From: an uncultured Gammaproteobacteria bacterium
Lineage (GTDB): Bacteria > Pseudomonadota > Gammaproteobacteria > SZUA-229
NCBI GenBank assembly: GCA_963759005.1
Contig: CAVWXQ010000005.1
Span: 14,546 to 78,545 of the forward strand
DNA: 64,000 nt
Reading direction: 5' to 3'
Numbering within the stretch: position 1 is the stretch's first letter; each line of letters begins with the position of its first letter. The notes beneath the pieces were generated by a model. That model saw nothing but the letters and a program-made list of their open reading frames with translations. It searched no databases and was not told where the DNA came from. This document shows, one piece after another, positions 3,796 through 48,549 of the stretch. Position numbers and translations under genes: made by a program.

Positions 3796-6273
3796 GTGGC
3801 TTCAATAACTGATAAGCAGACAGCAACTCCACCGTTGTTGTCTATTTTTATCCTGTCTGCCTCTGCCCTGGCGTATGAAGTTCTACTGATAAGACTGTTT
3901 TCGGTTATTCACTGGCACCATTTCGCATTTATGGTGATCAGTATTGCTTTGCTCGGTTATGGTGTGAGCGGCAGTTTAGTTACCGTGTTTCGACGTTGGC
4001 TGCTGGATAACTATGACTTTGTATTTATCGCCAACATCCTGTTATTTGGACTTTCATCGATCGCCTGTTTCATTGTTGTGCAGCAATTGCCTTTCAATAC
4101 ACTGGAAATACTGTGGGACAGCGCGCAGTGGCAACGCCTGTTATTGAGCTATTTACTGCTGACACTGCCTTTTTTCTTTGTTGCTAATGCAATTGCACTC
4201 ACCATCATGCGCTTTCATCAGAAAATCCCACTGGTGTATGGCATTGATCTCATCGGTGCCGGTATCGGCGCGGTGTTAATCATGGCACTGCTGCAGGTAT
4301 TTTCAGCTGATGCCATGTTGCGTCTTTTAGCTATCAGCGGCATATCAGCAGGCTTTTTTGCCCTGTCTAACCTCAGCAACAGAGAAAAACAAATAACCAT
4401 TTCGGTACTTTTATTATGTTTACTTAGTGTTTTTTGGACACCACAGAAATGGCTTGATCTGCGCCTATCAGAATACAAGGGACTAACACAAACACTTTTG
4501 ATAAAAGGTGCTTCTTTGCGCCTGTCGCACACATCCCCTGTTTCTCAGACTGATGTTGTGCAAAGTCCGTTCATTCCATTTCGCAACGCTCCCGGTTTGA
4601 GTTTACAGAGCCCCGCGGCGCCACCAGAGCAGCTCGCTGTTTTCAGAGATGGTGATGAAATGACAACCATCGATCATGCCTCGGATAAAGGTTCAGGGGA
4701 CATAAGTTCACTTGACTATTTTGACTACATGAGTTCAGCCCTGCCTTATCACGTACACGGTTCGCCGCAAAGTGCACTGATTCTTGCCTCAGCCACCGGC
4801 GCACAGATATTGCAGTCGCATTATTATAAAATACCTCGAATTGATGCGGTCGAGCCAGATAAGCAGCTCAATTTATTGATTACTGATCAGTATGCGGATT
4901 ATTACGGCTGGCAGAAGCTGAAACACAAAGTAACCATTCACAACATATCAGTACGCGGATTTGCAGCCTCAGAAAAAAAATATGATATTGCCGTTTTGGG
5001 TCCGTCTGGCGCATCATCCGGTGGTTCGGCAGGCGTATATGCACTGTCAGCATCTTACGATTATACCGTTGAAGCTTTGCAGTCCTATCTGAAGCTGCTC
5101 GCTCCTGACGGACTATTAAGTTTAACCTTATGGACCAGCACACCTGCACGCGAAAACCTGAAGCTATTTGCAACTGCCGTTACTGCAATGAAGAATACCG
5201 GGATTAAACATCCTGAAAACAACATCGCGTGGATTCGAAGCTGGAATACCGCCACGCTGTTACTCAAGAACAGTGCGTTGACCGCTGAAGAAATAAACAA
5301 GGTGCGTGACTTCAGTTTATCGCGCAGCTTTGATCTGGCCTGGCTTCCCGGAATCAGCCCGTTCGAAGTTAACAAATACCAGTTATTGCAGGAACCTGTT
5401 TTTTATCTTGCTGCCCGATCTTTATTGAGCCAGTCCTTACTGAAAAACGACAAAAGCAATTTCATTCATGAATATAAATACGACATTCAGCCCGCTACAG
5501 ACGACAGACCTTATTTCAATAATTTTTTCAAATGGTCAAGCATGAAAGAGTTCCTGACCTTGCCCGGGCAGGCTGGCATATCGATGATAGGTGTTGGTTA
5601 TCCAACCTTACTGGTAACCCTGATACAGGCTTCTGTTGCTGCATTTATTCTAATATTGCTGCCTTTGTTTTTTGTGCAAACAGATATAAAGAAAACCGCA
5701 AACACGCGACGAAATATTATCTTTTACTTTCTGGCAATCGGGCTGGCATTTCTTTTTATTGAAATCGCCTTTATCCAGAAGTTTACCCTGATACTCAGCC
5801 AGCCACTGTATGCTGTTGCCGTGGCAATATGTGCCTTCCTTATTTTTTCAGGTCTCGGTAGCCTATATGTCCAGCACCGCATGAAAGCTTCATCAAGCTC
5901 CATCATAGCGGTTTTATTGCGCCGCTCAGTTATCATGATCGGGCTGATAATTATTATTTATATTGTATTATTACCGTTGATCAGCAACACGATTATGGCT
6001 ATGCCAGAAACAGCGCGAATTATTTCAGCTTTCGCTCTTGCTGCACCGCTTGCATTCTTTATGGGCATGCCTTTCTCGCTGGGCATGGCCACACTGCAAC
6101 AAACCAGTCCAGGCCTCATCCCCTGGGCCTGGGGTATCAACGGCTGCGCCTCGGTACTGAGTGCAGTACTGGCTGTGATACTGGCAATAGAGATAGGTTT
6201 TAATGGTGTCATGTTATGTGCAGTTGTACTGTATCTCATCGCATGGAGAAGCGCCTACAAACTTTATTCCTGA
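3796..6273 (+). CDS. Polytopic membrane protein with central spermidine-synthase-like (PABS/AdoMet-fold) domain
   Basis: It starts 7 nt after the Pcm-like gene. About 7 N-terminal TM helices are followed by LILASATGAQIL...VEPD...LLAPDGLLSL (aminopropyltransferase-like), then about 6 C-terminal TM helices. Confidence 0.6.
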   Translation: MASITDKQTATPPLLSIFILSASALAYEVLLIRLFSVIHWHHFAFMVISIALLGYGVSGSLVTVFRRWLLDNYDFVFIANILLFGLSSIACFIVVQQLPFNTLEILWDSAQWQRLLLSYLLLTLPFFFVANAIALTIMRFHQKIPLVYGIDLIGAGIGAVLIMALLQVFSADAMLRLLAISGISAGFFALSNLSNREKQITISVLLLCLLSVFWTPQKWLDLRLSEYKGLTQTLLIKGASLRLSHTSPVSQTDVVQSPFIPFRNAPGLSLQSPAAPPEQLAVFRDGDEMTTIDHASDKGSGDISSLDYFDYMSSALPYHVHGSPQSALILASATGAQILQSHYYKIPRIDAVEPDKQLNLLITDQYADYYGWQKLKHKVTIHNISVRGFAASEKKYDIAVLGPSGASSGGSAGVYALSASYDYTVEALQSYLKLLAPDGLLSLTLWTSTPARENLKLFATAVTAMKNTGIKHPENNIAWIRSWNTATLLLKNSALTAEEINKVRDFSLSRSFDLAWLPGISPFEVNKYQLLQEPVFYLAARSLLSQSLLKNDKSNFIHEYKYDIQPATDDRPYFNNFFKWSSMKEFLTLPGQAGISMIGVGYPTLLVTLIQASVAAFILILLPLFFVQTDIKKTANTRRNIIFYFLAIGLAFLFIEIAFIQKFTLILSQPLYAVAVAICAFLIFSGLGSLYVQHRMKASSSSIIAVLLRRSVIMIGLIIIIYIVLLPLISNTIMAMPETARIISAFALAAPLAFFMGMPFSLGMATLQQTSPGLIPWAWGINGCASVLSAVLAVILAIEIGFNGVMLCAVVLYLIAWRSAYKLYS

Positions 6274-6614
6274 GGAAAATACGCAGTTTGCGTAGCAACA
6301 TTTGAGTGATCATCAAATACTTTATATTCATAGCCGCAAATTCGAATCGCATCGCCATGTTTAATTTGTTTTTCTTTCACACAAAGATTATTCACATAGG
6401 TACCATTGGTACTGCCCAGATCCCTGATAGTGATATCTAACTGTTCAGCTAGATAACGATTGGGCACAAGCTTAAGCACCGCATGTTCACCGCTCACATC
6501 ACCACCGTCCAGCTGTAAACTGTTGCCATGGTTACGACCAATGCTGAACTCCCCTTCCGTCATATCAATTTCAGAAACGACAGCACCATTAACAATATGT
6601 TTTAGTTTAATCAA
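6264..6614 (-). CDS. Stand-alone FHA-domain protein
   Basis: GR..N.L.L....VS..HA.L and STNGTYVN motifs are typical of FHA domains. Confidence 0.7.
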   Translation of the reverse strand: MIKLKHIVNGAVVSEIDMTEGEFSIGRNHGNSLQLDGGDVSGEHAVLKLVPNRYLAEQLDITIRDLGSTNGTYVNNLCVKEKQIKHGDAIRICGYEYKVFDDHSNVATQTAYFPQE

Positions 6615-6858
6615 AATTCACTCCCAACATGTGTCTAAAAATATGACTTACTCTTCGTTATAAAAATAAAAAAACTATTGATTAACCATAGCCTAAATAA
6701 TAATAAAAAAGTGATAGCGACATCAGAATAGCTTTTTATAACCATTCTAATATGCTCATTTTTTGAAAATAATCATATCATCTACAAAAAATTGGGAGTA
6801 AAATGTCGATGCTGGCAGATTAAGTTCAGCAATAAATGTGAAGAAAAAGGAGATGTGT

Positions 6859-6966
6859 ATGGACAGAAACAAACCTGTGGAAGAGGAAACGAGGAGACTT
6901 ACATTCGCCGTTATTTTTATGTCGATATTTGTACTCGTATTATTTGGCCTGGCGCCAATAGTGTGA
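6859..6966 (+). CDS. 35-aa small single-TM protein (MDRNKPVEEETRRLTFAVIFMSIFVLVLFGLAPIV); paralog of 27741..27860
   Basis: SD AGGAG lies 8 nt upstream of the ATG. A charged N-terminus is followed by one TM helix. An intrinsic terminator follows immediately. It is below the ORF-track cutoff. Confidence 0.55.
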   Translation: MDRNKPVEEETRRLTFAVIFMSIFVLVLFGLAPIV

Positions 6967-7091: not shown

Positions 7092-7937
7092 TTAATCGCC
7101 TTCCCAGCCGATCTGCACAGTAAACCCCGCTGCTTTTTTATGACCACCACCACCATATATTTTTGCCACTTCAGCAACATCAATACCATTTTCAGCTGAA
7201 CGCAAACTAAATGATCGGCCATCGGGGTGGTCCCAGTAACAGGCCGCAAAGGCTTCGCCAATAGACATAATATGGCCGGCATCAGATACGTAGGCTGATG
7301 ATGCATTGAGTACCGGTACATCATAACCAGCAATGACCATTCGCCTTACGCCGGATGCAATTAATTCTTTAATATCTTTTTGTAGTTTGCGCTCTATCGC
7401 TTCTCCATCTCGTTTTAATGCTTTCAGTTCATCCTTGTTACTGGCCATGAGTTTATCCCACACCTTGAAATCAAATGGGTAGGATGAAAGCGCAGCATTA
7501 ATCTCCCTGGTTCCATCAAGCTTAAACAACCATAAGTCGCGATCCTGAATATGTTTAATGAGTACTGGTGGCGGCTGATCAGGATTAAACCATTGCCATG
7601 CCAGCATAGCGCCGGACTTGTTCATATCAAACAGACCTTTTATTTTTCCGACTTTCAATAATTCAGATAAGTCCTCTTCAGCTGATATATGGTGATCAAG
7701 TATAGTGACGCTGGCGGCTGTTTTTAGCATATCTTCCAGCACCTTTTTTTTATAAGAGAAGTCGACCAGAAAAACATCCCGATCATTCACATCCGGAGGC
7801 GGCTGCTGGTGAACACCTTTATAGAATTGAATGTTTTCGCCTAATGCATTACGAACAGCCCAGGCAGCAGCATAACCATCAAGGCAATTACCGTGGTAGA
7901 TACATAACTTTTTTAGTTTGCTCATGTTAGTTAACAA
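7092..7937 (-). CDS. DHH/DHHA1 family phosphoesterase (NrnA-like)
   Basis: DHH motif ILDHH, N-terminal HGNCLDG, and C-terminal DHHA1 motif GGGGHKKAAGF. It is the last gene of a four-gene minus-strand operon. Confidence 0.7.
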   Translation of the reverse strand: MLTNMSKLKKLCIYHGNCLDGYAAAWAVRNALGENIQFYKGVHQQPPPDVNDRDVFLVDFSYKKKVLEDMLKTAASVTILDHHISAEEDLSELLKVGKIKGLFDMNKSGAMLAWQWFNPDQPPPVLIKHIQDRDLWLFKLDGTREINAALSSYPFDFKVWDKLMASNKDELKALKRDGEAIERKLQKDIKELIASGVRRMVIAGYDVPVLNASSAYVSDAGHIMSIGEAFAACYWDHPDGRSFSLRSAENGIDVAEVAKIYGGGGHKKAAGFTVQIGWEGD

Positions 7938-8412
7938 AACGAAAAGAGAAACTGGCCTTTATCAGTTTCATAGAAAGCCAGATAAAAATTAATGGGAAAA
8001 GAATGGTTTGCATGGTGAAGACAACAATCAGGTTTATTATATGGTTAGTTAAATCCTCTGCTTCTACTTTTAACTGTTCTACCTGTTTATCAACATTTAT
8101 AGAATCAATCGCTGAATCAATACTGCTACTCATCATTTCCAGCCAGGACATATCTTTGTTATCTATTTCCTGGTTATCTTTACTGATGTTGGCAATCGTA
8201 GTATTTGATTTATCCAACTGTTGTTTTGATTCGATATAGGTTGCTTGCAGAAATGCTTTGTATAGTCCATCACTGGTAATCGCCATTATCGGGATAAAAA
8301 ACCGTAGTATGACTAGAAAAACGATAGCTCGATATAAAATATTTTTTAGACTGAGCGACGTTTTATGATATTTCCAGAGAAATAACACCATCAGGAATAG
8401 TGATACCGTCAC
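7927..8412 (-). CDS. Hypothetical membrane/coiled-coil protein (possibly the 3' part of a frameshifted gene together with 8363..8779)
   Basis: It has N- and C-terminal TM helices. It overlaps the upstream ORF by 50 nt in another frame and overlaps the DHH gene by 11 nt. Confidence 0.4.
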   Translation of the reverse strand: MTVSLFLMVLFLWKYHKTSLSLKNILYRAIVFLVILRFFIPIMAITSDGLYKAFLQATYIESKQQLDKSNTTIANISKDNQEIDNKDMSWLEMMSSSIDSAIDSINVDKQVEQLKVEAEDLTNHIINLIVVFTMQTILFPLIFIWLSMKLIKASFSFRFVN

Positions 8413-9673: not shown

Positions 9674-10165
9674 TTACAAGCCAATACCTACACCAAGATG
9701 AAAGCTGGTTCGACTGCGTCCACTGTCCTGCGACCAGAGATGTAACTGCTCACTGTTGATAACCGCATATATGTAAGCGCTTTCACCCACATTGCCACTC
9801 TGGTTATCACTAATCTTGCCCAGTACAGAGATTACTCGGCCCTGTGCATAAGTGGTGGGCTCAAGATATCCCTGGTGCTGAATAATGAAGCGCCCCAGTG
9901 GTTTGCTTTCCAGTAATGGCCGGTGGGATGAATTGAGTGGATATGCCAGAACTTCAATGCGTGTTGAGTCTTTCAGATTTCGAGTGTCCAGAATGGTGCC
10001 ACCCCAGAGTGCAGTTTTTCCTTGATGAAGCTCATGTTCTGCGACCACGCTTTGCGGTGTAAGTGATTGATCGACCTGTGTGGTATCAAAATCAGGAGTA
10101 CTGGCACAACTTACCAGTAAACCGAGAAGAGCGAGAAGAGCGAGAAAAACAGGCTTGTTGATCAT
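9674..10165 (-). CDS. slp: Slp family outer-membrane lipoprotein
   Basis: Lipobox LLVSC. The W/FGG...GR..I/L...G pattern matches E. coli Slp/YeaY. Confidence 0.7.
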   Translation of the reverse strand: MINKPVFLALLALLGLLVSCASTPDFDTTQVDQSLTPQSVVAEHELHQGKTALWGGTILDTRNLKDSTRIEVLAYPLNSSHRPLLESKPLGRFIIQHQGYLEPTTYAQGRVISVLGKISDNQSGNVGESAYIYAVINSEQLHLWSQDSGRSRTSFHLGVGIGL

Positions 10166-10186
10166 GTTTTATTTTTTTGGCTTTAA

Positions 10187-10565
10187 CCCGGATATTTCAT
10201 AGGAATGCAGACAATGGGAACATGTTTTATAAAATCAGTCAGTGAGTCAGTTTGTACGATTCGCCGATAAAATCGTAGGAACGATTTTACATGAGCGAAG
10301 CGAGCCCGTAGGGTGAAGGGCAGGAAGCCCGTAATTAAAGCATAGCCGTTCGGCACATCGCTTCGCTGCTCCATGCATTGCCCTACTACCGTACTTCCTG
10401 TACATAAGCTATGGTTACAGGGGAATCGTACAAAATGGCCGCTGATATTTTTCCAAAAGCTGCATAGCGTTATCGGGTACATAGTGTACTTTCTAATATA
10501 CCTGAATTTCATATTACAATCATAGTGTTAAGCGAGATTAGCAAGGTTCCTATGAAATATCCGGG
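10187..10565. mobile_element. MITE family 2 copy A (379 bp, perfect 23-bp TIR TTAACCCGGATATTTCATAGGAA, flanked by TTAA at 10183-10186 and 10566-10569)
   Basis: Perfect terminal inverted repeats with TTAA on both sides. Internal hairpins (GAGCGAAGCGA/TCGCTTCGCTGCTC). Related copies at 30447 and 45290. Confidence 0.75.
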
Positions 10566-11153
10566 TTAATGAAGGCGGAGATGCGGATAATTGTAAGGAT
10601 AATAGTAAGGATAATACATCGGATAATAGGGGCCGTACATCCACGGGTAAGGTGGATAATCGAGATATGACTGTTCCGGTTCAGGGGGCCATAAGTAATA
10701 GTGATCTACCTGAATAACCGGATATTCATAGAGAAATTCTCCCACCTTGAGATTGTCAGCTCTGAGTACCTGTCCCGTTACTGTAATTTTGCGCTCCGCA
10801 CTATACACCTGCGGTTCCACGAATTCATCTATGATGGCGATAAATCGCCCCGGACTTTGATCAGAGCTCAGCGGTTTACCATTTTCACTTAAAGGAAACG
10901 CAATAATTGTCAGCACACTGGCATTTTGTTTGTTCTCCGTGTGAAGAATAGCGCCACCCCAGCGTACTTTTTGAGACAGGTAGGAGCCTGTCTGATGACG
11001 TACCTGTGCAACGCCGGGGCTGCCGTCCAGTGGTTGCTTTATTTCAGGCGGGATGTGTGAGCTACAGGCAGACAGCAGCACAATAACCGCAAGTCTGCCA
11101 AAAAAAGTTATCGATTTAAAAAATATCACTCCAGTTAGAAAAAACCAAGGCAT
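10566..11153 (-). CDS. Slp-family lipoprotein paralog with Tyr/Pro-rich C-terminal tail
   Basis: Lipobox LLSAC. A WGGAIL...GRFIA core is followed by YPPYPWMYGPYYPMYYPYYYPYNYP. Its stop TAA is the TTAA flanking the MITE. Confidence 0.65.
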   Translation of the reverse strand: MPWFFLTGVIFFKSITFFGRLAVIVLLSACSSHIPPEIKQPLDGSPGVAQVRHQTGSYLSQKVRWGGAILHTENKQNASVLTIIAFPLSENGKPLSSDQSPGRFIAIIDEFVEPQVYSAERKITVTGQVLRADNLKVGEFLYEYPVIQVDHYYLWPPEPEQSYLDYPPYPWMYGPYYPMYYPYYYPYNYPHLRLH

Positions 11154-17566: not shown

Positions 17567-17837
17567 CTAGTACTCTATCAACCTGATAATGACGGATGCA
17601 GTTGGTCTGTCAGCGTTCAGGGCAAGGCACGCCTCGCAGCAAATGGCCTTAGTCCTTTGCAAGAGGTGTAACGATGCCATGGACGTTGACAGACCAACCC
17701 TTCGGGCATCGCTGTGGTGTCTCGCCACTGCGTTACAGCACTTGACAAGGACTATGGCCATTGCCTACGTACTGTGCCTTGTTGCGAAACACCACAACGA
17801 TGCTGCATCCGTCATTATCAGGTTGATAGAGTACTAG
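17567..17837. mobile_element. MITE family 1 copy 1 (approx. 265-bp nested palindrome, ends TACTCTATCAACCTGATAATGACGG.TGCAG, CTAG on both sides)
   Basis: There are three near-identical copies in the window (here, 25728 and 47657). A 35-bp TIR encloses a second internal inverted repeat. The ORFs inside are mirror artefacts. Confidence 0.8.
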
Positions 17838-24600: not shown

Positions 24601-25731
24601 ATGAATAAAGTGATGTTAGTAACAGCAGTATCTTCAATCGTAGTGTTGTCAGGCTGTGCATCTACAGGTGAAACAGGCGCAAACATTCAGAAAGAATACG
24701 AAGCTGAACTTAATGCCCGTAACCAGCAAATTGAACAATTAAAACAGAAGCTGGATGAAAGCCAGAAAGTGGCAGCCTCATCCAGAAGTACACCTACAAG
24801 CGCATCTGCCAGCATGGAAACACAGCAAGCGACGAATACTAGTACAACTTTCAATAATAACCTGTTGCCACCAAATGCCAAGGCTGGTCAATGTTTTGCT
24901 CGCGTTTACACACCGCCCACCTACCGAACAGAAAGCGAAAGTGTACTTAAAGCTGATGGTTATGATGTGGTAACAATCATACCTGCTGTTTATGGTACTG
25001 AAAAACAAACGGTAATGACTGCAGAAGCAACGGAAGCTCTCGAAGTCATCCCGGCGGTTTATGGCTGGAAAGAAGAACAGGTATTAGTCAGTCCTGAAAT
25101 CACTGAATTACAACGTGTGCCAGCAAAATATGGCTTCGAAGAAGAAAAACTTCTAGTTAAACCTGCACACTCCATATGGAAAAAAGGCACCGGCCCTATC
25201 ACAAAAGTAAACCAGAGCACTGGTGAAATCATGTGCCTGGTTGAAGTACCGGCTGTTTATGAAACCGTTAAAAAACGAGTTCTACTAACACCTGAAACCA
25301 CCAAACTGGTTGTCGTTAAAGCGGCAGTTTACAAAACGGTCAAAACACGCGTTGTTGAGCAGCCTGCCAGAACGGTTAGCAAAGAAATCCCTGCAAAATA
25401 CGACACTGTAGAGGTGAAAAAGCTGCTTAAAGAGTCAACCACAACATCGGTTAGTGTTCCTCCTGTATATGAAACAGTGAAAACCACCATTAATGTCGCT
25501 GATGGCTTCCTTGAGTGGACACCGATTCTGTGCGAAACCAATGTTACTGGTGACATTATTCGTCAGCTTCAGCAATCATTGAATGATAAAAACTATAACG
25601 CTGGTCCAGTCGATGGTGTTTATGGTTGGCAGACTACTGCTGCAGTTCGCAAATACCAGAGAGATAATAAGATGCCTGGTGACGGTCAGTTGACGATTGC
25701 ACTGGTTGAATCTTTGAATCTTAAATACTAG
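24601..25731 (+). CDS. Lipoprotein with 7 tandem approx. 20-aa repeats (PAVYxTxKxxVL) and C-terminal peptidoglycan-binding (PG_binding_1-like) domain
   Basis: Lipobox VLSGC. Repeats PAVYGTEKQTV / PAVYGWKEEQV / PAKYGFEEEKL / PAVYETVKKRV / AAVYKTVKTRV / PAKYDTVEVKK / PPVYETVKTTI. C-terminal NYNAGPVDGVYGWQTTAAVRKYQ. The stop TAG lies in the CTAG target of the adjacent MITE. Confidence 0.65.
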   Translation: MNKVMLVTAVSSIVVLSGCASTGETGANIQKEYEAELNARNQQIEQLKQKLDESQKVAASSRSTPTSASASMETQQATNTSTTFNNNLLPPNAKAGQCFARVYTPPTYRTESESVLKADGYDVVTIIPAVYGTEKQTVMTAEATEALEVIPAVYGWKEEQVLVSPEITELQRVPAKYGFEEEKLLVKPAHSIWKKGTGPITKVNQSTGEIMCLVEVPAVYETVKKRVLLTPETTKLVVVKAAVYKTVKTRVVEQPARTVSKEIPAKYDTVEVKKLLKESTTTSVSVPPVYETVKTTINVADGFLEWTPILCETNVTGDIIRQLQQSLNDKNYNAGPVDGVYGWQTTAAVRKYQRDNKMPGDGQLTIALVESLNLKY

Positions 25732-26007
25732 TACTCTATCAGCCTGATAATGACGGATGCAGCATCGTTGTGGTGTTTCAGCAACAAGGCACAGTACGTA
25801 GGCAATGGCCATAGTCCTTGTCAAGTGCTGTAACGCAGTGGCGAGGACACCGACAGCGATGCCCTGAAGGGTATGGTCTGTCAACATCCATGGCACTGCG
25901 TTACACCTCTTGCAAAGGACTAAGGCCATTTGCTGCGAGGCGTGCCTTGCCGCTGAAACGCTGACAGACCAACTGCATCCGTCATTATCAGGTTGATAGA
26001 GTACTAG
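25728..26007. mobile_element. MITE family 1 copy 2 (inverted internal orientation), CTAG flanks
   Basis: The sequence is near-identical to the copies at 17567 and 47657. Confidence 0.8.
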
Positions 26008-29417: not shown

Positions 29418-30386
29418 TCAGCTGTGTTCATTACAACGCTGGCAGACGAACTCCTCCAGTTTTGCTGCGTCTCTGGCGAAATTGCGGATGCCCTCTGCCA
29501 GCTTTTCAGTGGCCATGGCATCTTCATTCATCATCCAGCGGAACGCCGATTCATGCATCGGGATGATATCAATCTCCATTACCCTGGCTTTTTCTGCATC
29601 GAGTCGACGCGCTACATCGCCTTCGGCAGCGCGAAGCTCTTCCATTAGCTCAGGCGAGATAGTCAGCAGGTCACAGCCCGCGAGCTCCAGGATCTCACCG
29701 CTGTTGCGGAAGCTTGCCCCCATCACCACGGTAGAGTAGCCGTGATGTTTGTAGTAGTTGAAAATTTGGGTAACCGACTGAACGCCTGGATCTGCTTCAG
29801 GCGAGTAACCATCTACACCTTCAGCCGCCTTGTACCAGTCCATAATGCGACCTACAAAAGGTGAGATCAAGGTGGCGCCAGCCTTGGCTGCAGCGATCGC
29901 CTGTGCCACGCTGAACATCAGGGTCAGGTTGCAGTGAATACCACGCCGCTCCAGCTCGCTAGCGGCCTGGATGCCTTCCCATGTGGACGCTATCTTGATG
30001 AGGATCCTTGAGCTATCGATACCTGCTTGCTCATACAGGGACATCAGGCTTTCAGCTCGGGCGACAGTTGCGTCGCTATCAAAAGACAGACGGGCATCAA
30101 CCTCGGTTGAAACTCGCCCGGGGATAAGTTTAAGTATTTCTGCCCCGAAGTTCACCGCCAGCTTATCCATCATATCAATCGCACGGGTTTCCATTTTCTC
30201 ACTGCGAGTCATAGCGTAGTCAATTGCATCTTGCAACAGATGCTCATACTGGTTTTTTTGTGCGGCCTTGAGTAATAGTGAAGGATTGGTAGTGGCGTCT
30301 GTAGGCGCATAAGCGCTGATTGAGTCTATATCGCCGGTATCTGCCACCACTGTAGTCATTTCTTTCAACTGATCAAGCTTGTTCAT
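29418..30386 (-). CDS. tal: Transaldolase
   Basis: [11 protein letters not shown]...[13 protein letters not shown] is collinear with E. coli TalB. The start is taken at MNKLDQL (30386) rather than the track start at 30425. Confidence 0.85.
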
Positions 30387-30446
30387 AGGTGTACATCCTC
30401 TTCCAGGACTGATTAAAAGTAACAAATTGCAGTCTATCTTTTTTAA

Positions 30447-30775
30447 CCCGGATATTTCATAGGTACGCTGTCAATATAGCTTAACACTATGTTTATAATT
30501 AGAAATACAGGAATATTAGAAAACTACACCATATACCCGATACCGCTCGGCACAACGCTACGCTCATATAAAATCGTTCCTACGATTTTATCGGCGAATC
30601 GTACAAACGACCGCCACGGATGGCGGAAGTGTCGATTTTGCATCGTTACATTGATGTAACTTATTAGGGCAATGCAGGAGCTATTGCCGAGGAGCATCAC
30701 ATCGACCTGACTCACTGCCGATTTTTAAAAAAACATAGCCCCAACTACTGCATTCCTATGAAGTATTCGAGTTCA
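30447..30775. mobile_element. MITE family 2 copy B (left TIR intact, right TIR degenerate), 60 bp upstream of the tal start
   Basis: TTAACCCGGATATTTCATAGG at 30443. Internal homology to copy A (cgattttatcggcgaatcgtac). The right end ttcctatgaagtattcgagttca is degenerate. Confidence 0.65.
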
Positions 30776-31588
30776 TAACCAAATATAACGAATTAATATT
30801 GATATGCCCACAATTATCTTGAATGAAAACATAAGATATGCGAAACAGTAACTGTATTAATAGACATGAGACCAATTTGCATGCCAACCCGAATAGAAAG
30901 AGGCATAGGGACATAGTGAATAATTAATCCGCCCTTACACTTTTGCACCACCTCAGTCCATCAACACACCGACGCCTGATGATGGTGACATGGGCTTGAT
31001 TTAACCTAAATAACTCAGTTGAACCTACTGCGAACGACCAATGCACTGAATCTACAAGACTTTCTCGAACATTTTGAACTCACCGTATAGGTGATACGTT
31101 TTCGCTCAAAATAACCGATAAAGTATCGTATATTCAACACTTTGATCGCTCTCGCTACGATTCAACTGATTTATTTAGGTTAAGCTGTAATAAATGTGAA
31201 CTTAGCAACACAAATATAATGCTCATAAGTAGATGCCTTCGTGTTCAGGTAGTAAAAGCGCACGCCTATTACGTCTCCTTTAAGTATTCTTTTATAGGCT
31301 GAAATAAGGTATACTGGACTGTCGAGTTCAGGTGTCTATTGATTTACACTTCCTTCTCAGCGCGGTAATCCTTTCCTCAAGGCTGAAACCTTAACAAGGT
31401 TCGTGGCGTAGCAACCATCCGCAAATAATCCTGCCAGAAAAAACTGCATCTTGCTGGAATGATCAACATTTACAAGGTCTTGCGTTTTAATCCAGCATAA
31501 CAAGGCCACAGAAAATAACTGCTCGCGCATAGAAAAAAGCAAACCCGGTCATCGCGCACGACGAAGATAAATAGTGAGGCATTAAAGC

Positions 31589-32458: not shown

Positions 32459-32509
32459 CTATTTGATAGTTTTAAATCAGATTAGCAGCGTTCCAATTTA
32501 ATATCCTGG

Positions 32510-35059
32510 CTAGACACCCTGGCGCAGGCTTTGTATGGGTGGCGATGTTAATACACTACGTGTTCCAAGTATTCCTGCAATGACGACGATCAGTATGCCA
32601 CAGATAATACCTGTCAGGGCCACGGTAATATCAAACTGGTAAGAAAACTTGAAAACGAATTTAGCCAGTAGCCAGGCAAGTGACGTTGCTGCAACTCCGG
32701 CCAGTAAACCGGACAATGCACCGAGCAGGGTAAATTCTGCAAACAGTCCAAGCATCAGGGTTTTTTTGCTGGCCCCTAATGTTCTTAATACCGCGTTTTC
32801 GAATCGCCTTTCATCATGACTAGACTGAATAGCCGCATACAATACAGCCAGACCGGCCAACAATGTAAACAGAAAAATAAATTCAACTGCCAGTGAGACA
32901 CGATTGATGATACCACGTACACGATTCATGATGGTTTCCACATCAATCAGCGTAATGTTGGAAAACTGGCGTACCAGACTAGCCAGTTGCAAACGTTGCT
33001 TTTTATTGAGATAGACACTGGTTACCCAGTTTGCCGGTTTATCTTCGAGCACAGCCGGTGGCACCACGGTGAAAAAGTTAATATTGAAAGTGTCCCAGTC
33101 GACAGTGCGAAGATTACTCACGGTGAAATCCATAACTGTGCCATTAATATCGAAACCAATAACATCATTCAGTTTCAGTTTTAAGGTTTCAGCCAGTTTC
33201 GATTCCAGTGACAATAAAGGTTTTCCAAAATCATCCCTGCTCCACCATGAACCGGCAACCACGGCATTACCCAGTTGCATATTCTCAGCCCATGAAAGAT
33301 TAAATTCACGGGTCAGCAGATGTTTTGCACGTTCACTTTCATAGTCTGAACTATTCACCTTGCTGTTATTAATCTCCACCAGCCTGGCCCGCACCATGGG
33401 ATATAATTTGGTATTGCTGACCCCCATAGTTTGAAAATAATCTGTTATTGGTGTTACCTGATCAGGCTGTACGTTGATCACAAAATAATTCGGCGCATTT
33501 TCGGGCAGACTGTTTTGCCAGTCGTTGAGTAAATCAGAACGCACAGTAGACAATAACAGCATTACCATAATCCCCAATCCAAAAGACACAATCTGAATCA
33601 CACTACTGCCTGGCCGGCGTGAAATATTTGCCAGCCCAAAACGCCAGGCTATACCCACTCTGCCACGCAAACGATTCAGCAGCAGAATGAGAAGGTAAGC
33701 AGCCAATGCCAGTATTACCAGGGTAGCCATAATGCCGCCAACAACCACACTAACCAGTAATATATCTCCGATCTGCAAATACATCAGCAGCGACATAGAC
33801 AACAACACAGCAAGGTAAACGGTCCAGACACGGGGCGGCTGCGTTGGCACATCTTTACGTAACACATGTAATGGCGGCACCCGGCGCAAGGAGAGCAATG
33901 GCGGCAGTGCAAAGCCGATAAGCAAAACGATGCCAGTTGCATAACCCAGAAAAAACGCTGTAAAAGATGGTGCAGGTAATTGTGTTAGCACCAGTTGATC
34001 AAGCAATTGTGTTATTACAAACTGTGTCAGTAAACCAAGAAAACAGCCAACACTGCTGGCCAGCAGTGCAAGCCAGAACATTTCCAAAGTGAAAAGTTGT
34101 ATGATGGTTTTCTGCGAGGCGCCAAGACAGCGCATCATGGCGCTGTTATTAAGGTGACGGTTGCTAAAACGGTTTGCCACCGTCGCCACTGCAACGCCAG
34201 CAAGCAACACGCTGATCAGTGCGGCAAGGCCAAGAAACTTTTTAGCACTATGTAGTGCAGTATTCAGTTCCGGCCGGCCTTCTTCAAGCGTAAGAATGCT
34301 TTCACCCGGTCGTAACTTATTCGTAATGGCCTTGCGATAACTGTTAATACTGCTGCTTTCTCCCGAAATCAACACGCGATAATTTACCAGTGCGCCTGTA
34401 CTTATCAATCCGGTGCTTGCCAGATCGAGACTGTTCATCATCACCCGTGGCGCAACACTAAACAGGTCACCGGCACGGTCGGGTTCATAACGCAGGATCT
34501 TGCCAAGTTTGAAGCTTGCATTGCCGAGGTCCACCCTGTCACCCATGTTTAAACCCAGTAGCGTCAAGAGTCGTGCTTCTACCCAGAGTTCACCCGGTGC
34601 CGGCAAACTAGTGGTTGCTTCATCATCACCAAAAGCACTGTCACTGATGCGTAACACACCGCGTAAAGGATAACCTTCGCTGACCGCCTTTACTTCTGTC
34701 AGTTGCAGACCTTCGTTAGCCAGTAGCACACTACGAAACTGTATCGTGGTGGTTACCTGAAAGTCATTTGATCGTGCATCAGCGATAAAATCGTTAATAT
34801 CGGAACGTCCGGAAGTAATCACCAGGTCAGCAGCAATCAGTTCAGCTGACTGCATTTGCAGACCTTGTTCGATTCGGTTTGTGAACAGGCCCACGGCAGT
34901 AATACTGGTTACCGCGATGATAAGACCAATGGCAAGAATATTTAGCTCACCGCCGCGCCAGTCACGCCATAACATGCGCCATGAGTTAGTCCAGTAAAAG
35001 CCAAACCCTCGATTTTGTCCAGAGCCTGTGTTCTTTGCGGAAAACGTATTTGGAATCAT
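32510..35059 (-). CDS. ybbP: FtsX-family ABC transporter permease (YbbP-like, 10 TM, two FtsX domains)
   Basis: 849 aa. Duplicated FtsX-like TM bundles. It is adjacent to the ybbA-like ATPase and tesA as in E. coli. Confidence 0.75.
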   Translation of the reverse strand: MIPNTFSAKNTGSGQNRGFGFYWTNSWRMLWRDWRGGELNILAIGLIIAVTSITAVGLFTNRIEQGLQMQSAELIAADLVITSGRSDINDFIADARSNDFQVTTTIQFRSVLLANEGLQLTEVKAVSEGYPLRGVLRISDSAFGDDEATTSLPAPGELWVEARLLTLLGLNMGDRVDLGNASFKLGKILRYEPDRAGDLFSVAPRVMMNSLDLASTGLISTGALVNYRVLISGESSSINSYRKAITNKLRPGESILTLEEGRPELNTALHSAKKFLGLAALISVLLAGVAVATVANRFSNRHLNNSAMMRCLGASQKTIIQLFTLEMFWLALLASSVGCFLGLLTQFVITQLLDQLVLTQLPAPSFTAFFLGYATGIVLLIGFALPPLLSLRRVPPLHVLRKDVPTQPPRVWTVYLAVLLSMSLLMYLQIGDILLVSVVVGGIMATLVILALAAYLLILLLNRLRGRVGIAWRFGLANISRRPGSSVIQIVSFGLGIMVMLLLSTVRSDLLNDWQNSLPENAPNYFVINVQPDQVTPITDYFQTMGVSNTKLYPMVRARLVEINNSKVNSSDYESERAKHLLTREFNLSWAENMQLGNAVVAGSWWSRDDFGKPLLSLESKLAETLKLKLNDVIGFDINGTVMDFTVSNLRTVDWDTFNINFFTVVPPAVLEDKPANWVTSVYLNKKQRLQLASLVRQFSNITLIDVETIMNRVRGIINRVSLAVEFIFLFTLLAGLAVLYAAIQSSHDERRFENAVLRTLGASKKTLMLGLFAEFTLLGALSGLLAGVAATSLAWLLAKFVFKFSYQFDITVALTGIICGILIVVIAGILGTRSVLTSPPIQSLRQGV

Positions 35060-45289: not shown

Positions 45290-45344
45290 TAATTAACACA
45301 ATAGTGTTAAGTTGATTTTTCAGTATTCCTATGAAATATCCGGG
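45290..45344. mobile_element. Solo end fragment of MITE family 2 (TTCCTATGAAATATCCGGG + TTAA)
   Basis: Perfect right-TIR copy plus an internal catagtgttaag block. No partner TIR. Confidence 0.6.
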
Positions 45345-45351
45345 TTAATTC

Positions 45352-45636
45352 TTATTTGCGGTGAATCCTTTCTATTCGACATTCCATCGAGCCAAATAAC
45401 CAGCTTGAAATGATAGTAACCAGTATCAGCACTGCAACACTCGCCATAATCGCAACTATAAAGATCATAATGAACCCTACTGACAGTGTCACGGCAACAC
45501 CAATTATTGGCAGCAGAATAAATATAACGATGGCCGTGACCAATGCCGCAATAATAATCGCACCAAGTATCAATAAAATTCTTGTAAAAGGATTACATAC
45601 TTCCTTACCGTTAATGATTATTCGTGTATTCATCAT
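45352..45636 (-). CDS. Small 3-TM membrane protein (YqiJ/NfeD-associated?)
   Basis: Hydrophobic. It lies immediately downstream of the NfeD gene. Confidence 0.4.
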   Translation of the reverse strand: MMNTRIIINGKEVCNPFTRILLILGAIIIAALVTAIVIFILLPIIGVAVTLSVGFIMIFIVAIMASVAVLILVTIISSWLFGSMECRIERIHRK

Positions 45637-47656: not shown

Positions 47657-47927
47657 CTTGTACTCTATCAACCTGATAATGACGGGTGCAGTTGGTCTGT
47701 CAACGTTCAGGGTAAGGCACGCCTCGCAGCAAATGGCCTTAGTCCTTTGCAAGAGGTGTAACGATGCCATGGACGTTGACAGACCAACCCTTCGGGCATC
47801 GCTGTGGTGTCTCGCCACTGCGTTACAGCACTTGACAAGGACTATGGCCATTGCCTGCGTACTGTGCCTTGTTGCGAAACACCACAGCGATGCTGCACCC
47901 GTCATTATCAGGATGATAGAGTACTAG
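47657..47927. mobile_element. MITE family 1 copy 3 inserted in-phase (267 bp including the CTAG duplication) in the exonuclease gene
   Basis: Flanks gcta-CTtG[...]CTAG-atta. The ancestral gctaCTAGatta encodes ...YNLVAH.... The element carries a TAA in the gene frame at 47823-25 on the minus strand. Confidence 0.8.
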
Positions 47928-47992
47928 ATTATAATCCTCGATAAAATCAGCAAATGCCAGCATCACTTCCTCACAGGGCGCCGCCTTGTTAA

Positions 47993-48318
47993 GGGCACCT
48001 CTATTAATTGCTTGTGCCCTCTGGCTTTACGACCAGTTCAGAATCAAGACGTGCTTTTGAAGCCATGCCCACAGTTAATACACATGGGCCTGTCGAAAAA
48101 GCGCAACGCAGAGTCTGGGCTGGTCGTAAAGCCCCGTAGGGCGCAGCCTGAAGCATGCATCTGCTCGGCAATTGCTCCTGCATTGCCCTACTACCGTCCT
48201 TCCATGGACATATGCGTTGTGAGCCTTGAGAATGGAATAACCATTCTGCTGCGGCTCACGCCTTGCAGCTACACGCTTCAGGTCACGCAGAGGACATAAG
48301 CAATTAATAGAGGTGCCC
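47993..48318. mobile_element. MITE family 3 (326 bp; 21-bp TIR GGGCACCTCTATTAATTGCTT, TTAA duplication) in the exonuclease gene
   Basis: TTAA lies on both sides (47989-92 and 48319-22). It shares an internal 60-70 bp core (..gcattgccctactaccgt..) with MITE family 2. Confidence 0.7.
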
Positions 48319-48549
48319 TTAAGCATCTTATTGGTAATGCCCGTATAGTTCTCAATGAAGGCACTTATGCGCTTATGAGGATTCATCAACTGTTGAAAAC
48401 GATCAACTAATTCACCGTTCACTAATTTCACCGCACCTATTTCAATGGCACGATCACCGTAATCAGGCGACAGACCTGTGGTTTCAAAATCCAGGACAAT
48501 AACCGTATCGGCAGTTGAATTTATATCAATCATTTTTATATTTTATGAA

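Follow-up and report, generated by a model that had tools for sequence, protein, structure and literature searches.

A probable IS1380-transposase-dependent miniature element at the stop codon of an slp gene in an uncultured gammaproteobacterium

We analyzed a stretch of 64,000 nucleotides (hereafter the window) from an uncultured Gammaproteobacteria bacterium (GenBank assembly GCA_963759005.1, contig CAVWXQ010000005.1, positions 14,546 to 78,545 of the forward strand), with the focus on a small element at 10187-10565 that lies between two genes for Slp-family lipoproteins, slp1 and slp2. [quoted passage not shown] In each property of MITEs that could be tested (size, lack of coding capacity, target duplication, dispersal and an autonomous partner) the element agrees with this class, and its ends and flanks match those of the IS1380 family. 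The category itself is well known. The link to IS1380, the modules nested within the body and a fourth relic in the window (32459-32513) were absent from an earlier note on this DNA, which had been made from the sequence alone.

The element (copy A) is bounded by a perfect inverted repeat at 10183-10205 and 10547-10569 (23 nt, 100% complementary, with 341 nt between the arms), which is composed of TTAA and a 19-nt terminal inverted repeat (TIR), CCCGGATATTTCATAGGAA. The left TIR (L end, plus strand) is located at 10187-10205 and is identical to the right end of an IS1380-family insertion sequence (IS) described below, and the right TIR (R end, minus strand) is at 10547-10565. The two TTAA copies occupy 10183-10186 and 10566-10569. 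When up to three mismatches were allowed, the TIR motif had four matches in the window (both ends of copy A, the end at 30443, and 45326-45348), as compared with 0.00 expected (none in 100 shuffles). The body is 379 bp long and runs from left to right (L→R) on the plus strand; it is homologous to 33 complete copies in loci of metagenome-assembled genomes (MAGs) and to the 249-bp consensus, and could be described as this 249-bp base element plus a 15-nt variant segment and two modules, Y and X. Both its size and its perfect 19-nt TIR are those of a MITE, and it appears to be non-coding: a 109-amino-acid open reading frame (ORF) within copy A had no Pfam match, and every T1 base copy (T1 being the subfamily to which copy A belongs, see below) has at least one stop in each of the six frames. 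Both slp genes are on the minus strand. The upstream gene, slp1 (10566-11153; 195 amino acids as listed; PF03843, E=1.8e-47), ends within the right TTAA, its TAA stop being 10566-10568, as the earlier note had also read it. The downstream gene, slp2 (9674-10165; 163 amino acids; PF03843, E=2.7e-38), has its ATG at 10165, and the 17 nt between this ATG and the left TTAA are the native sequence left upstream of it. The two proteins are 29% identical.

The most direct evidence for insertion came from relatives that lack the element. By scanning one genome per species with the exact sequence TTAACCCGGATATTTCATAGG, we identified 49 loci, most of which were from three uncultured gammaproteobacterial MAGs (MFD03551.bin.2.90, MFD03551.bin.2.72 and ALSabin.113). 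Among the loci found was L006, which shows synteny with the window (∼81-85% nucleotide identity) and contains orthologs of both slp1 (5900-6451) and slp2 (6470-6952). In L006 these orthologs are 18 bp apart and a single TTAA overlaps the stop codon of the first gene, so that the difference from the window at this place is exactly the element plus one extra TTAA. This single TTAA and the 18-bp spacing indicate that copy A is an insertion with target duplication, which added 383 bp and brought the present spacing to 400 bp. L006 has its own copies of the element at two other intergenic sites of the same neighborhood, and thus the occupied sites differ between the two genomes.

A similar situation was observed upstream of tal, where the window contains a second copy (copy B, 30443-30775 with its flanks, L→R on the minus strand toward tal). 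We compared it with four contigs (L174, L175, L176 and L177) that encode Tal proteins 88-92% identical to that of the window. The segment 30447-30771 is absent from all four, each of which has a single TTAA at this site; in L174 and L176 this empty site is located 50 nt upstream of the ATG. Thus, at both loci the comparison of filled and empty sites revealed a target duplication, which is at most 4 bp, and the absence of copies A and B from relatives suggests that these insertions are recent enough for polymorphism among relatives. The earlier note had proposed a MITE family with TTAA target duplication, a formerly tight tandem pair of slp genes and a copy in the 5' region of tal, and had suggested a search for further copies and a comparison with relatives lacking them; further copies, whose absence would have spoken against the note, were indeed present in related genomes, the comparison gave the results above, and all three proposals held, the tal copy lying 50-56 nt upstream of the ATG.

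The scan with TTAACCCGGATATTTCATAGG demanded TTAA and was therefore biased with regard to the flanks. In a second scan, metagenome contigs were searched for a 25-mer from the conserved interior of the element, which revealed at least 120 loci, one of them titled marine-sediment metagenome. Together with the four copies or fragments in the window and the 49 genome loci, this is the wide dispersal typical of MITEs. Among the matches listed, the family comprises 114 de-duplicated copies overall, and more than 100 distinct copies occur in uncultured sediment Gammaproteobacteria. The 33 complete copies in MAG loci range from 188 to 900 bp, the commonest form being 249 bp. The flanks in the internal 25-mer scan were CTAG, CTAA, TTAG and TTAA. 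Hence the target of the family is YTAR and not strictly TTAA; the description of the element as TTAA-flanked, given in the earlier note, is right for three intact ends in the window and too narrow for the family.

Two TIR subfamilies, T1 and T2, could be distinguished, which have ∼78% of the body in common and whose two ends co-vary. T1 has the ends CCCGGATATTTCATAGG and includes the copies in the window, and the T2 ends are CCCGCATATTGCATGAG; T2 loci lie in the metagenome set L054-L173 (for example, L090 7642-7883). Among the matches listed, TTAA/TTAA flanks were found in 35 of 53 T1 copies, and those of T2 were mainly CTAG/CTAG or CTAG/CTAA. Since TAA or TAG forms part of YTAR, the element can naturally land on stop codons without harm, the stop being rebuilt by the duplication. 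Among 59 cases of a gene ending toward the R end, again among the matches listed, the stop was located within the flank in 18. In the same set, orientation relative to co-directional neighboring genes was biased (32:6 overall, p=2.4e-5). The bias was confined to T2 (25:2; in 25 of the 27 cases the flanking genes run R→L) and was not seen in T1 (7:4); thus it provides no argument about the window copy, which belongs to T1. We also considered the R→L open frame as evidence for coding and rejected it for this element, as it is open over the full length in 17 of 24 T2 base copies and never in T1.

With respect to the transposase, a complete 1,616-bp IS was identified at 82-1697 of L044, a contig with 66% GC whose MAG bears the label Planctomycetota. 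It has TTAA on both sides, and its ends are CCCGGATATTTCATAGGAAA, which is identical to the MITE TIR over 20 of 20 nt, and CCTGGATATTTCAT. The IS encodes a 450-amino-acid protein with a match to PF13701 (DDE_Tnp_1_4, E=3.6e-167), and hence represents an autonomous partner with matching TIR and a transposase. The MITE and this type of IS have only ∼20 terminal nucleotides in common at each end, as is customary between MITEs and ISs. The transposase is extremely common and well conserved in environmental data: the protein collection contained at least 8,000 homologs of the transposase at E≤1e-20; the best 120 of them were 74-89% identical, many were alone on ∼1.6-kb contigs, and one was named 'IS1380 family transposase' by NCBI. 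In four more complete IS copies (L050-L053), the ends are CCCGGATATTTCA and the flanks CTAG, TTAG or CTAA. Among plasmids, the nearest annotated relatives are ISPosp7 (50% amino acid identity), with ends CCTGAATATTTCAC and CCCGCATATTTCAC and CTAG/CTAG flanks, and ISPa33 (49%), with ends CCCGGATTTCTCATGA and CTAA/CTAA flanks. In addition to the IS, L044 carries a further site at 7813-8000. MAGs with the labels Planctomycetota, Phycisphaerae, Acidobacteriota and Flavobacteriaceae also contain the end sequence of this IS, which is often located where a contig ends.

IS1380-family elements have ends that begin with CC and generate a 4-5-bp direct repeat, as reportedly described in ISfinder. The CCCGG ends of the MITE and its 4-nt YTAR flanks fit this description, as do the annotated ISPa33 and ISPosp7, which have the same 4-bp YTAR flanks as the MITE family. 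These ISs likewise have ends that start with CC(C/T)G, and the motif CCCGGAT.TTTCA is common to them and the MITE; the element in the window differs from ISPa33 and ISPosp7 in having no transposase and in sharing only ∼20 nt per end with them. More distant relatives of the MITE system within the IS1380 family are ISEcp1 and ISPme1. In the open-access literature searched, we found no description of an IS1380-derived MITE. As a possible clue to the lineage we also checked TAACTGA heptamer repeats, and no arrays were found. It should be noted that a separate TIR-like end, CCTGGATATTTCATAGCAATGCAG, occurs in L017 (1158-1700), followed by an ORF with a putative IS630-type helix-turn-helix N-terminus (recognized by eye), an arrangement that may represent nesting of elements or a chimera.

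The layout of the MITE, TTAA followed by ends that begin with CCC, also resembles that of piggyBac, whose ends have the form CCC...GGG. The resemblance does not extend further: piggyBac is strict for TTAA, whereas the flanks of the MITE family include CTAG, CTAA and TTAG, and the L044 IS encodes a transposase of PF13701/PF01609 and not one of the piggyBac type. It is known that piggyBac integrates at TTAA (PMC7351741), and IS1380 transposases serve as its prokaryotic outgroup (PMC10813416).

The body of the element was investigated in 19 short T1 copies aligned for covariation and in 40 base-length copies used for folding, with the ends removed, and for counts of G·U and A·C pairs. The left two-thirds of the T1 base element form a single long interrupted hairpin, which in copy A corresponds to 10205-10465 on the plus strand (left arm ∼10205-10266, right arm ∼10407-10465), as supported by covariation, strand asymmetry and the fold of copy A itself. 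In eight of the 40 internal pairs both partners had changed (one of these pairs is G-C in 12 copies and A-U in 7). Paired cells made up 95.8%, as compared with 28-42% when the partners were slid, and none of 500 shuffles reached the covariation score. The hairpin also differs between strands. In the L→R strand, the cells of the 40 copies comprised 1,790 Watson-Crick, 278 G·U, 10 A·C and 40 other combinations; mismatches common to at least two copies were G·U in 15 columns versus A·C in 2, and singletons were found in 8 versus 6 columns. The mean folding energy was -73.8 kcal/mol for the L→R strand versus -48.8 kcal/mol for its complement, the former being more stable in 40 of 40 copies. In addition, the L→R strand has a run of five T after the hairpin; in copy A a T-run, TATTTTTCC, is present at 10446-10454 on the plus strand, within the hairpin region. 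For copy A, the plus strand folds at -141.1 kcal/mol and the slp-strand transcript at -127.9 kcal/mol over 404 nt (z=-6.7).

These features provide the material for an alternative according to which the body of the MITE functions as a strand-specific RNA element (a terminator, an RNase III/stability hairpin or a small RNA) that is made from the L→R strand, is under selection, and is merely carried by the TIRs, its orientation setting the effect. Such an element would explain why compensatory changes preserve the pairing, although the arms of long palindromes can also homogenize without selection. It would equally agree with the excess of G·U over A·C and the energy difference seen in all 40 copies, with the joining of one body to two co-varying TIR sets, and with the order of hairpin and T5 run, preceded in some variants by a promoter-like box. 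In copy B, the sole copy in the window with its L→R direction toward a gene (tal), both the 3' arm and the T-run have been lost. The R→L reading of co-directional genes around T2 copies, seen in 25 of the 27 cases among the matches listed, points in the same direction; however, the bias is absent from T1, the subfamily of the window copies, and in T2 it could reflect target asymmetry at TAG stop codons or the direction of replication. Moreover, the RNA element is a prediction from sequence, and the window element had no match in Rfam 15 at the gathering threshold; at E≤10, neither copy A nor a T2 copy had a match, and a base T1 copy gave only chance-level matches to miRNA hairpins. Overall, we regard this explanation as a real possibility, with the balance leaning somewhat against it.

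The two modules nested in the apex of the hairpin of copy A should also be considered here. Module Y (∼72 nt, 10267-10338, plus strand), recognized by comparing copy A with the 249-bp base copies, stands in place of the apical 'AAA' loop and consists of several small hairpins (AAAATCGT-AGGA-ACGATTTT and GGGC-AGGAA-GCCC). It is also present in some other copies (L006 4769-5200, L010, L027 and L028) and in part in copy B. Module X (57 nt, 10350-10406, plus strand) reads CGGCA...GCATTGCCCTACTACC, followed by a small hairpin and ATA, and is located in the palindrome CCATAGCTATGG. Its general form is 48-57 nt, with (T)CGGCAATTGCTCC.TGCATTGCCCTACTACC, a covarying hairpin of 4-6 bp with the loop ATCCAT/TTCCT, and then ATA. 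We identified it in 26 unique contexts in ∼1 Mb, which include at least three positions in this MITE as well as unrelated repeat families. In the window it is found at 10350-10406, 30640-30694 and 48161-48215, the last being inside a different element (47989-48322), and other sites include L007 885, L026 7934, L030 3012 and 7076, L074 5633 and L085 3268. No target duplication was found around module X at the two best-defined sites. Judging by its presence or absence among copies, module X may be a very small mobile element. Elhai and colleagues reportedly described in 2008 very small nested dispersed repeats (SDR elements) in cyanobacteria, which resemble module X in lying inside other repeats with no evident duplication; no sequence relation between the two is known. 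Taken together, a bolder proposal could be made, namely that the body would be a selected, structured, strand-specific element of ∼170 nt, acting as RNA or single-strand DNA and coupled to two IS1380-type end sets, with the transposases as its vehicles, some variants, through an added promoter-like box and a U-tract, being self-contained small-RNA or terminator cassettes, and with mobile module X (48-57 nt), which enters several unrelated repeat families with no duplication, as a guest. We consider this conjecture doubtful.

Several well-known bacterial repeats, such as ERIC in Yersinia, NEMIS/Correia in Neisseria and REP/BIME in Escherichia coli, are similar to the MITE of the window in that they are small, intergenic, bounded by TIRs and located at targets containing TA. 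The effects of ERIC on mRNA are said to depend on orientation, according to work by De Gregorio and colleagues from 2005. The present MITE has no sequence relation to ERIC, NEMIS or REP and belongs with another transposase family, and it is set apart from them by its two TIR subfamilies on one body and by its nested mini-modules. Long imperfect palindromes such as ERIC and NEMIS are co-transcribed with their neighbors and can fold as RNA hairpins (PMC1590033); for the MITE, a likeness to such transcribed hairpins is suggested, indirectly, by the strand-specific G·U pairing and the folding energies reported here.

Whether the insertion altered the transcription of slp is a separate matter. The earlier note had suggested that the element supplies either a promoter or a terminator between the two genes, in which case slp1 and slp2 would have become separate transcription units. 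The 400 nt between the genes, and the fact that just 17 native nt remain upstream of slp2, make such an effect conceivable, and IS1380-family elements such as ISEcp1 and ISPme1 do carry outward promoters (PMC9330008). However, the MITE has only its TIRs in common with the IS, and therefore promoters internal to the IS were not inherited. Our consensus scan of the minus strand within 10183-10569 revealed neither a σ70-like promoter (at least 4 of 6 matches in both hexamers, 16-18-nt spacing) nor a terminator-like site (GC-rich hairpin plus U-run), although the 15-nt variant segment does contain a minus-strand TATAAA and a short T-tract follows the hairpin. The only promoter-like site of the copy A region is on the plus strand (CAGACA-16-TAAAAT, 10208-10235; 9 of 12 in the consensus scan), where it is directed L→R and antisense to slp, and it occurs only in variants with the 15-nt insertion. 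The stable hairpin with the T5 run is likewise on the plus strand, opposite slp, rather than on the strand on which a terminator of slp1 would be needed. Thus, the scan gave no support to the suggested promoter or terminator, and we consider separate transcription units unlikely. In view of this negative scan of the minus strand, slp1 and slp2 most likely continue to be co-transcribed through the element; transcripts of slp2 would probably still arise by read-through out of slp1, over the strand that folds more weakly, and any effect on slp2 may be post-transcriptional, or partial polarity or processing, rather than the result of a new promoter.

The remaining alternative, that TTAA belongs to the terminal repeat itself and was not duplicated, or that the palindrome is native regulatory DNA without any insertion, draws on the fact that the palindromic TTAA extends the inverted repeat to 23 nt, and it is barely credible given that empty sites at both loci retain exactly one TTAA, that other copies are flanked by CTAG, CTAA or TTAG, and that copies are found at unrelated loci.

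We therefore return to the transposed MITE as the preferred explanation of 10187-10565. Its 19-nt ends would be the binding and cleavage ends for an IS1380-family DDE transposase of the ISPa33/ISPosp7-like group. Acting in trans, such a transposase would have inserted the MITE into the TTAA that overlapped the TAA stop of slp1, and the staggered cut would have duplicated this TTAA and regenerated the stop codon, leaving a pair of genes that had probably been 18 bp apart now 400 bp apart. The body encodes no protein; the pairing of its hairpin appears to have been kept by compensatory changes and is predicted to be much more stable on the L→R strand, which is antisense to slp at this site. At the second locus, tal would now be separated from a conserved promoter-like site by a leader of 325 nt contributed by copy B.

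It should be noted that several points weigh against parts of this explanation. The complete IS copies that we have seen sit on GC-rich contigs, some of them labelled Planctomycetota, and a tblastn search with the L044 transposase against the 64-kb window and ∼1 Mb of gammaproteobacterial-like loci yielded no match there, the only hits being GC-rich IS loci. Ranking the best 120 homologs by amino acid composition revealed no AT-rich candidate among them. The partner transposase of the MITE in the host lineage is therefore putative. Many T2 copies have unequal flanks (for example, CTAG on the left and CTAA on the right); models of 2-, 3- and 4-bp duplication were compared with the flanks and none of them fits all copies, so that by the flanks the duplication within YTAR may be 4 bp or 2-3 bp. 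We kept the 4-bp reading because ISPa33, ISPosp7 and most T1 copies show 4 bp. In the body, the G·U bias could partly stem from the shared ancestry of a few source copies. Finally, consensus scans can miss real promoters, and what we state about slp2 expression depends entirely on them; the minus strand of copy A, in this variant, also has a weak T-tract after the hairpin.

As for the other copies in the window, the body of copy B extends over 30447-30771 (325 nt), with TTAA at 30443-30446 and a decayed TTCA at 30772-30775 (TGAA on the minus strand). The ATG of tal is at 30386, which leaves 56 nt between it and the TTAA; the earlier note had counted the decayed flank into the extent of this copy (30447-30775) and had given its distance from the tal start as 60 bp. 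Copy B is internally rearranged and has neither the hairpin's 3' arm nor the T-run. Directly upstream of it is a promoter-like sequence, TGGGCA-17-TATATT (30782-30810, minus strand; a consensus match only), which is conserved in L174 and which ends 6-7 nt before the insertion point in both the window and L174. If this is the tal promoter, the tal leader now includes the entire copy B.

A solo R-end fragment, recognized by its TIR match and by alignment to the consensus (positions 202-249), is present at 45301-45348 on the plus strand, with TTAA at 45345-45348 located 3 nt from the stop of the ORF 45352-45636; the earlier note had already reported a solo TIR next to this stop, with a different extent (45290-45344). 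The fourth representative is a decayed R-end relic with a CTAG flank (32459-32513, plus strand), identified by its match to the consensus and by a full copy at the same site in L174. The relic itself is 51 nt long (32459-32509), CTA at 32510-32512 forms the TAG stop of an FtsX-like gene, and the relic plus CTAG fills the entire gap from this stop to the ATG of a SpoU-like gene. In L174 (763-1020), a full 249-bp T1 copy flanked by CTAG/CTAG lies on the FtsX-like stop codon and is followed by a second solo TIR.

Further repeats were observed in the same region and elsewhere in the window. Upstream of tal, a different TTAA-flanked MITE of 183 bp is located at 31001-31183 (TIR TTAACCTAAATAACTCAGTTGAA, 96% complementary), which the syntenic contigs L174, L176 and L177 lack. 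As it, too, has ends that start with CC, it may likewise depend on an IS1380-type transposase. A segment of ∼97 nt (30863-30959) has no counterpart in these three contigs either. The spacer between tal and the SpoU-like gene is ∼640 nt longer in the window than in L174, L176 and L177, and insertions account for all of this difference. A third TTAA-flanked element, 334 bp in length, occupies 47989-48322 (TIR TTAAGGGCACCTCTATTAATTGCTTGTGCCCTCTG, 94% complementary) and has module X inside. In addition, a separate MITE family has three copies of ∼270-280 bp (17567-17837, 25728-26007 and 47657-47927), with a 35-nt TIR, CTAGTACTCTATCAACCTGATAATGACGGATGCAG, and internal halves that recur in both orientations.

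These results have several implications for this organism and for the element family. About 1 kb of 'intergenic' DNA near slp, tal and two other genes in the window is transposon debris, as opposed to regulatory sequence native to these genes. Nothing but these insertions sets the slp1-slp2 pair and the tal leader apart from their counterparts in close relatives, which provides natural with/without pairs in which effects on expression could be examined. The family documents MITEs that depend on transposases of the IS1380 type, the bacterial relatives of piggyBac, and its YTAR/TTAA target permits harmless insertion at stop codons. What goes beyond a routine MITE is the selection-like signature on one strand of the body, the joining of one body to two sets of ends, and the mini-modules nested within it.

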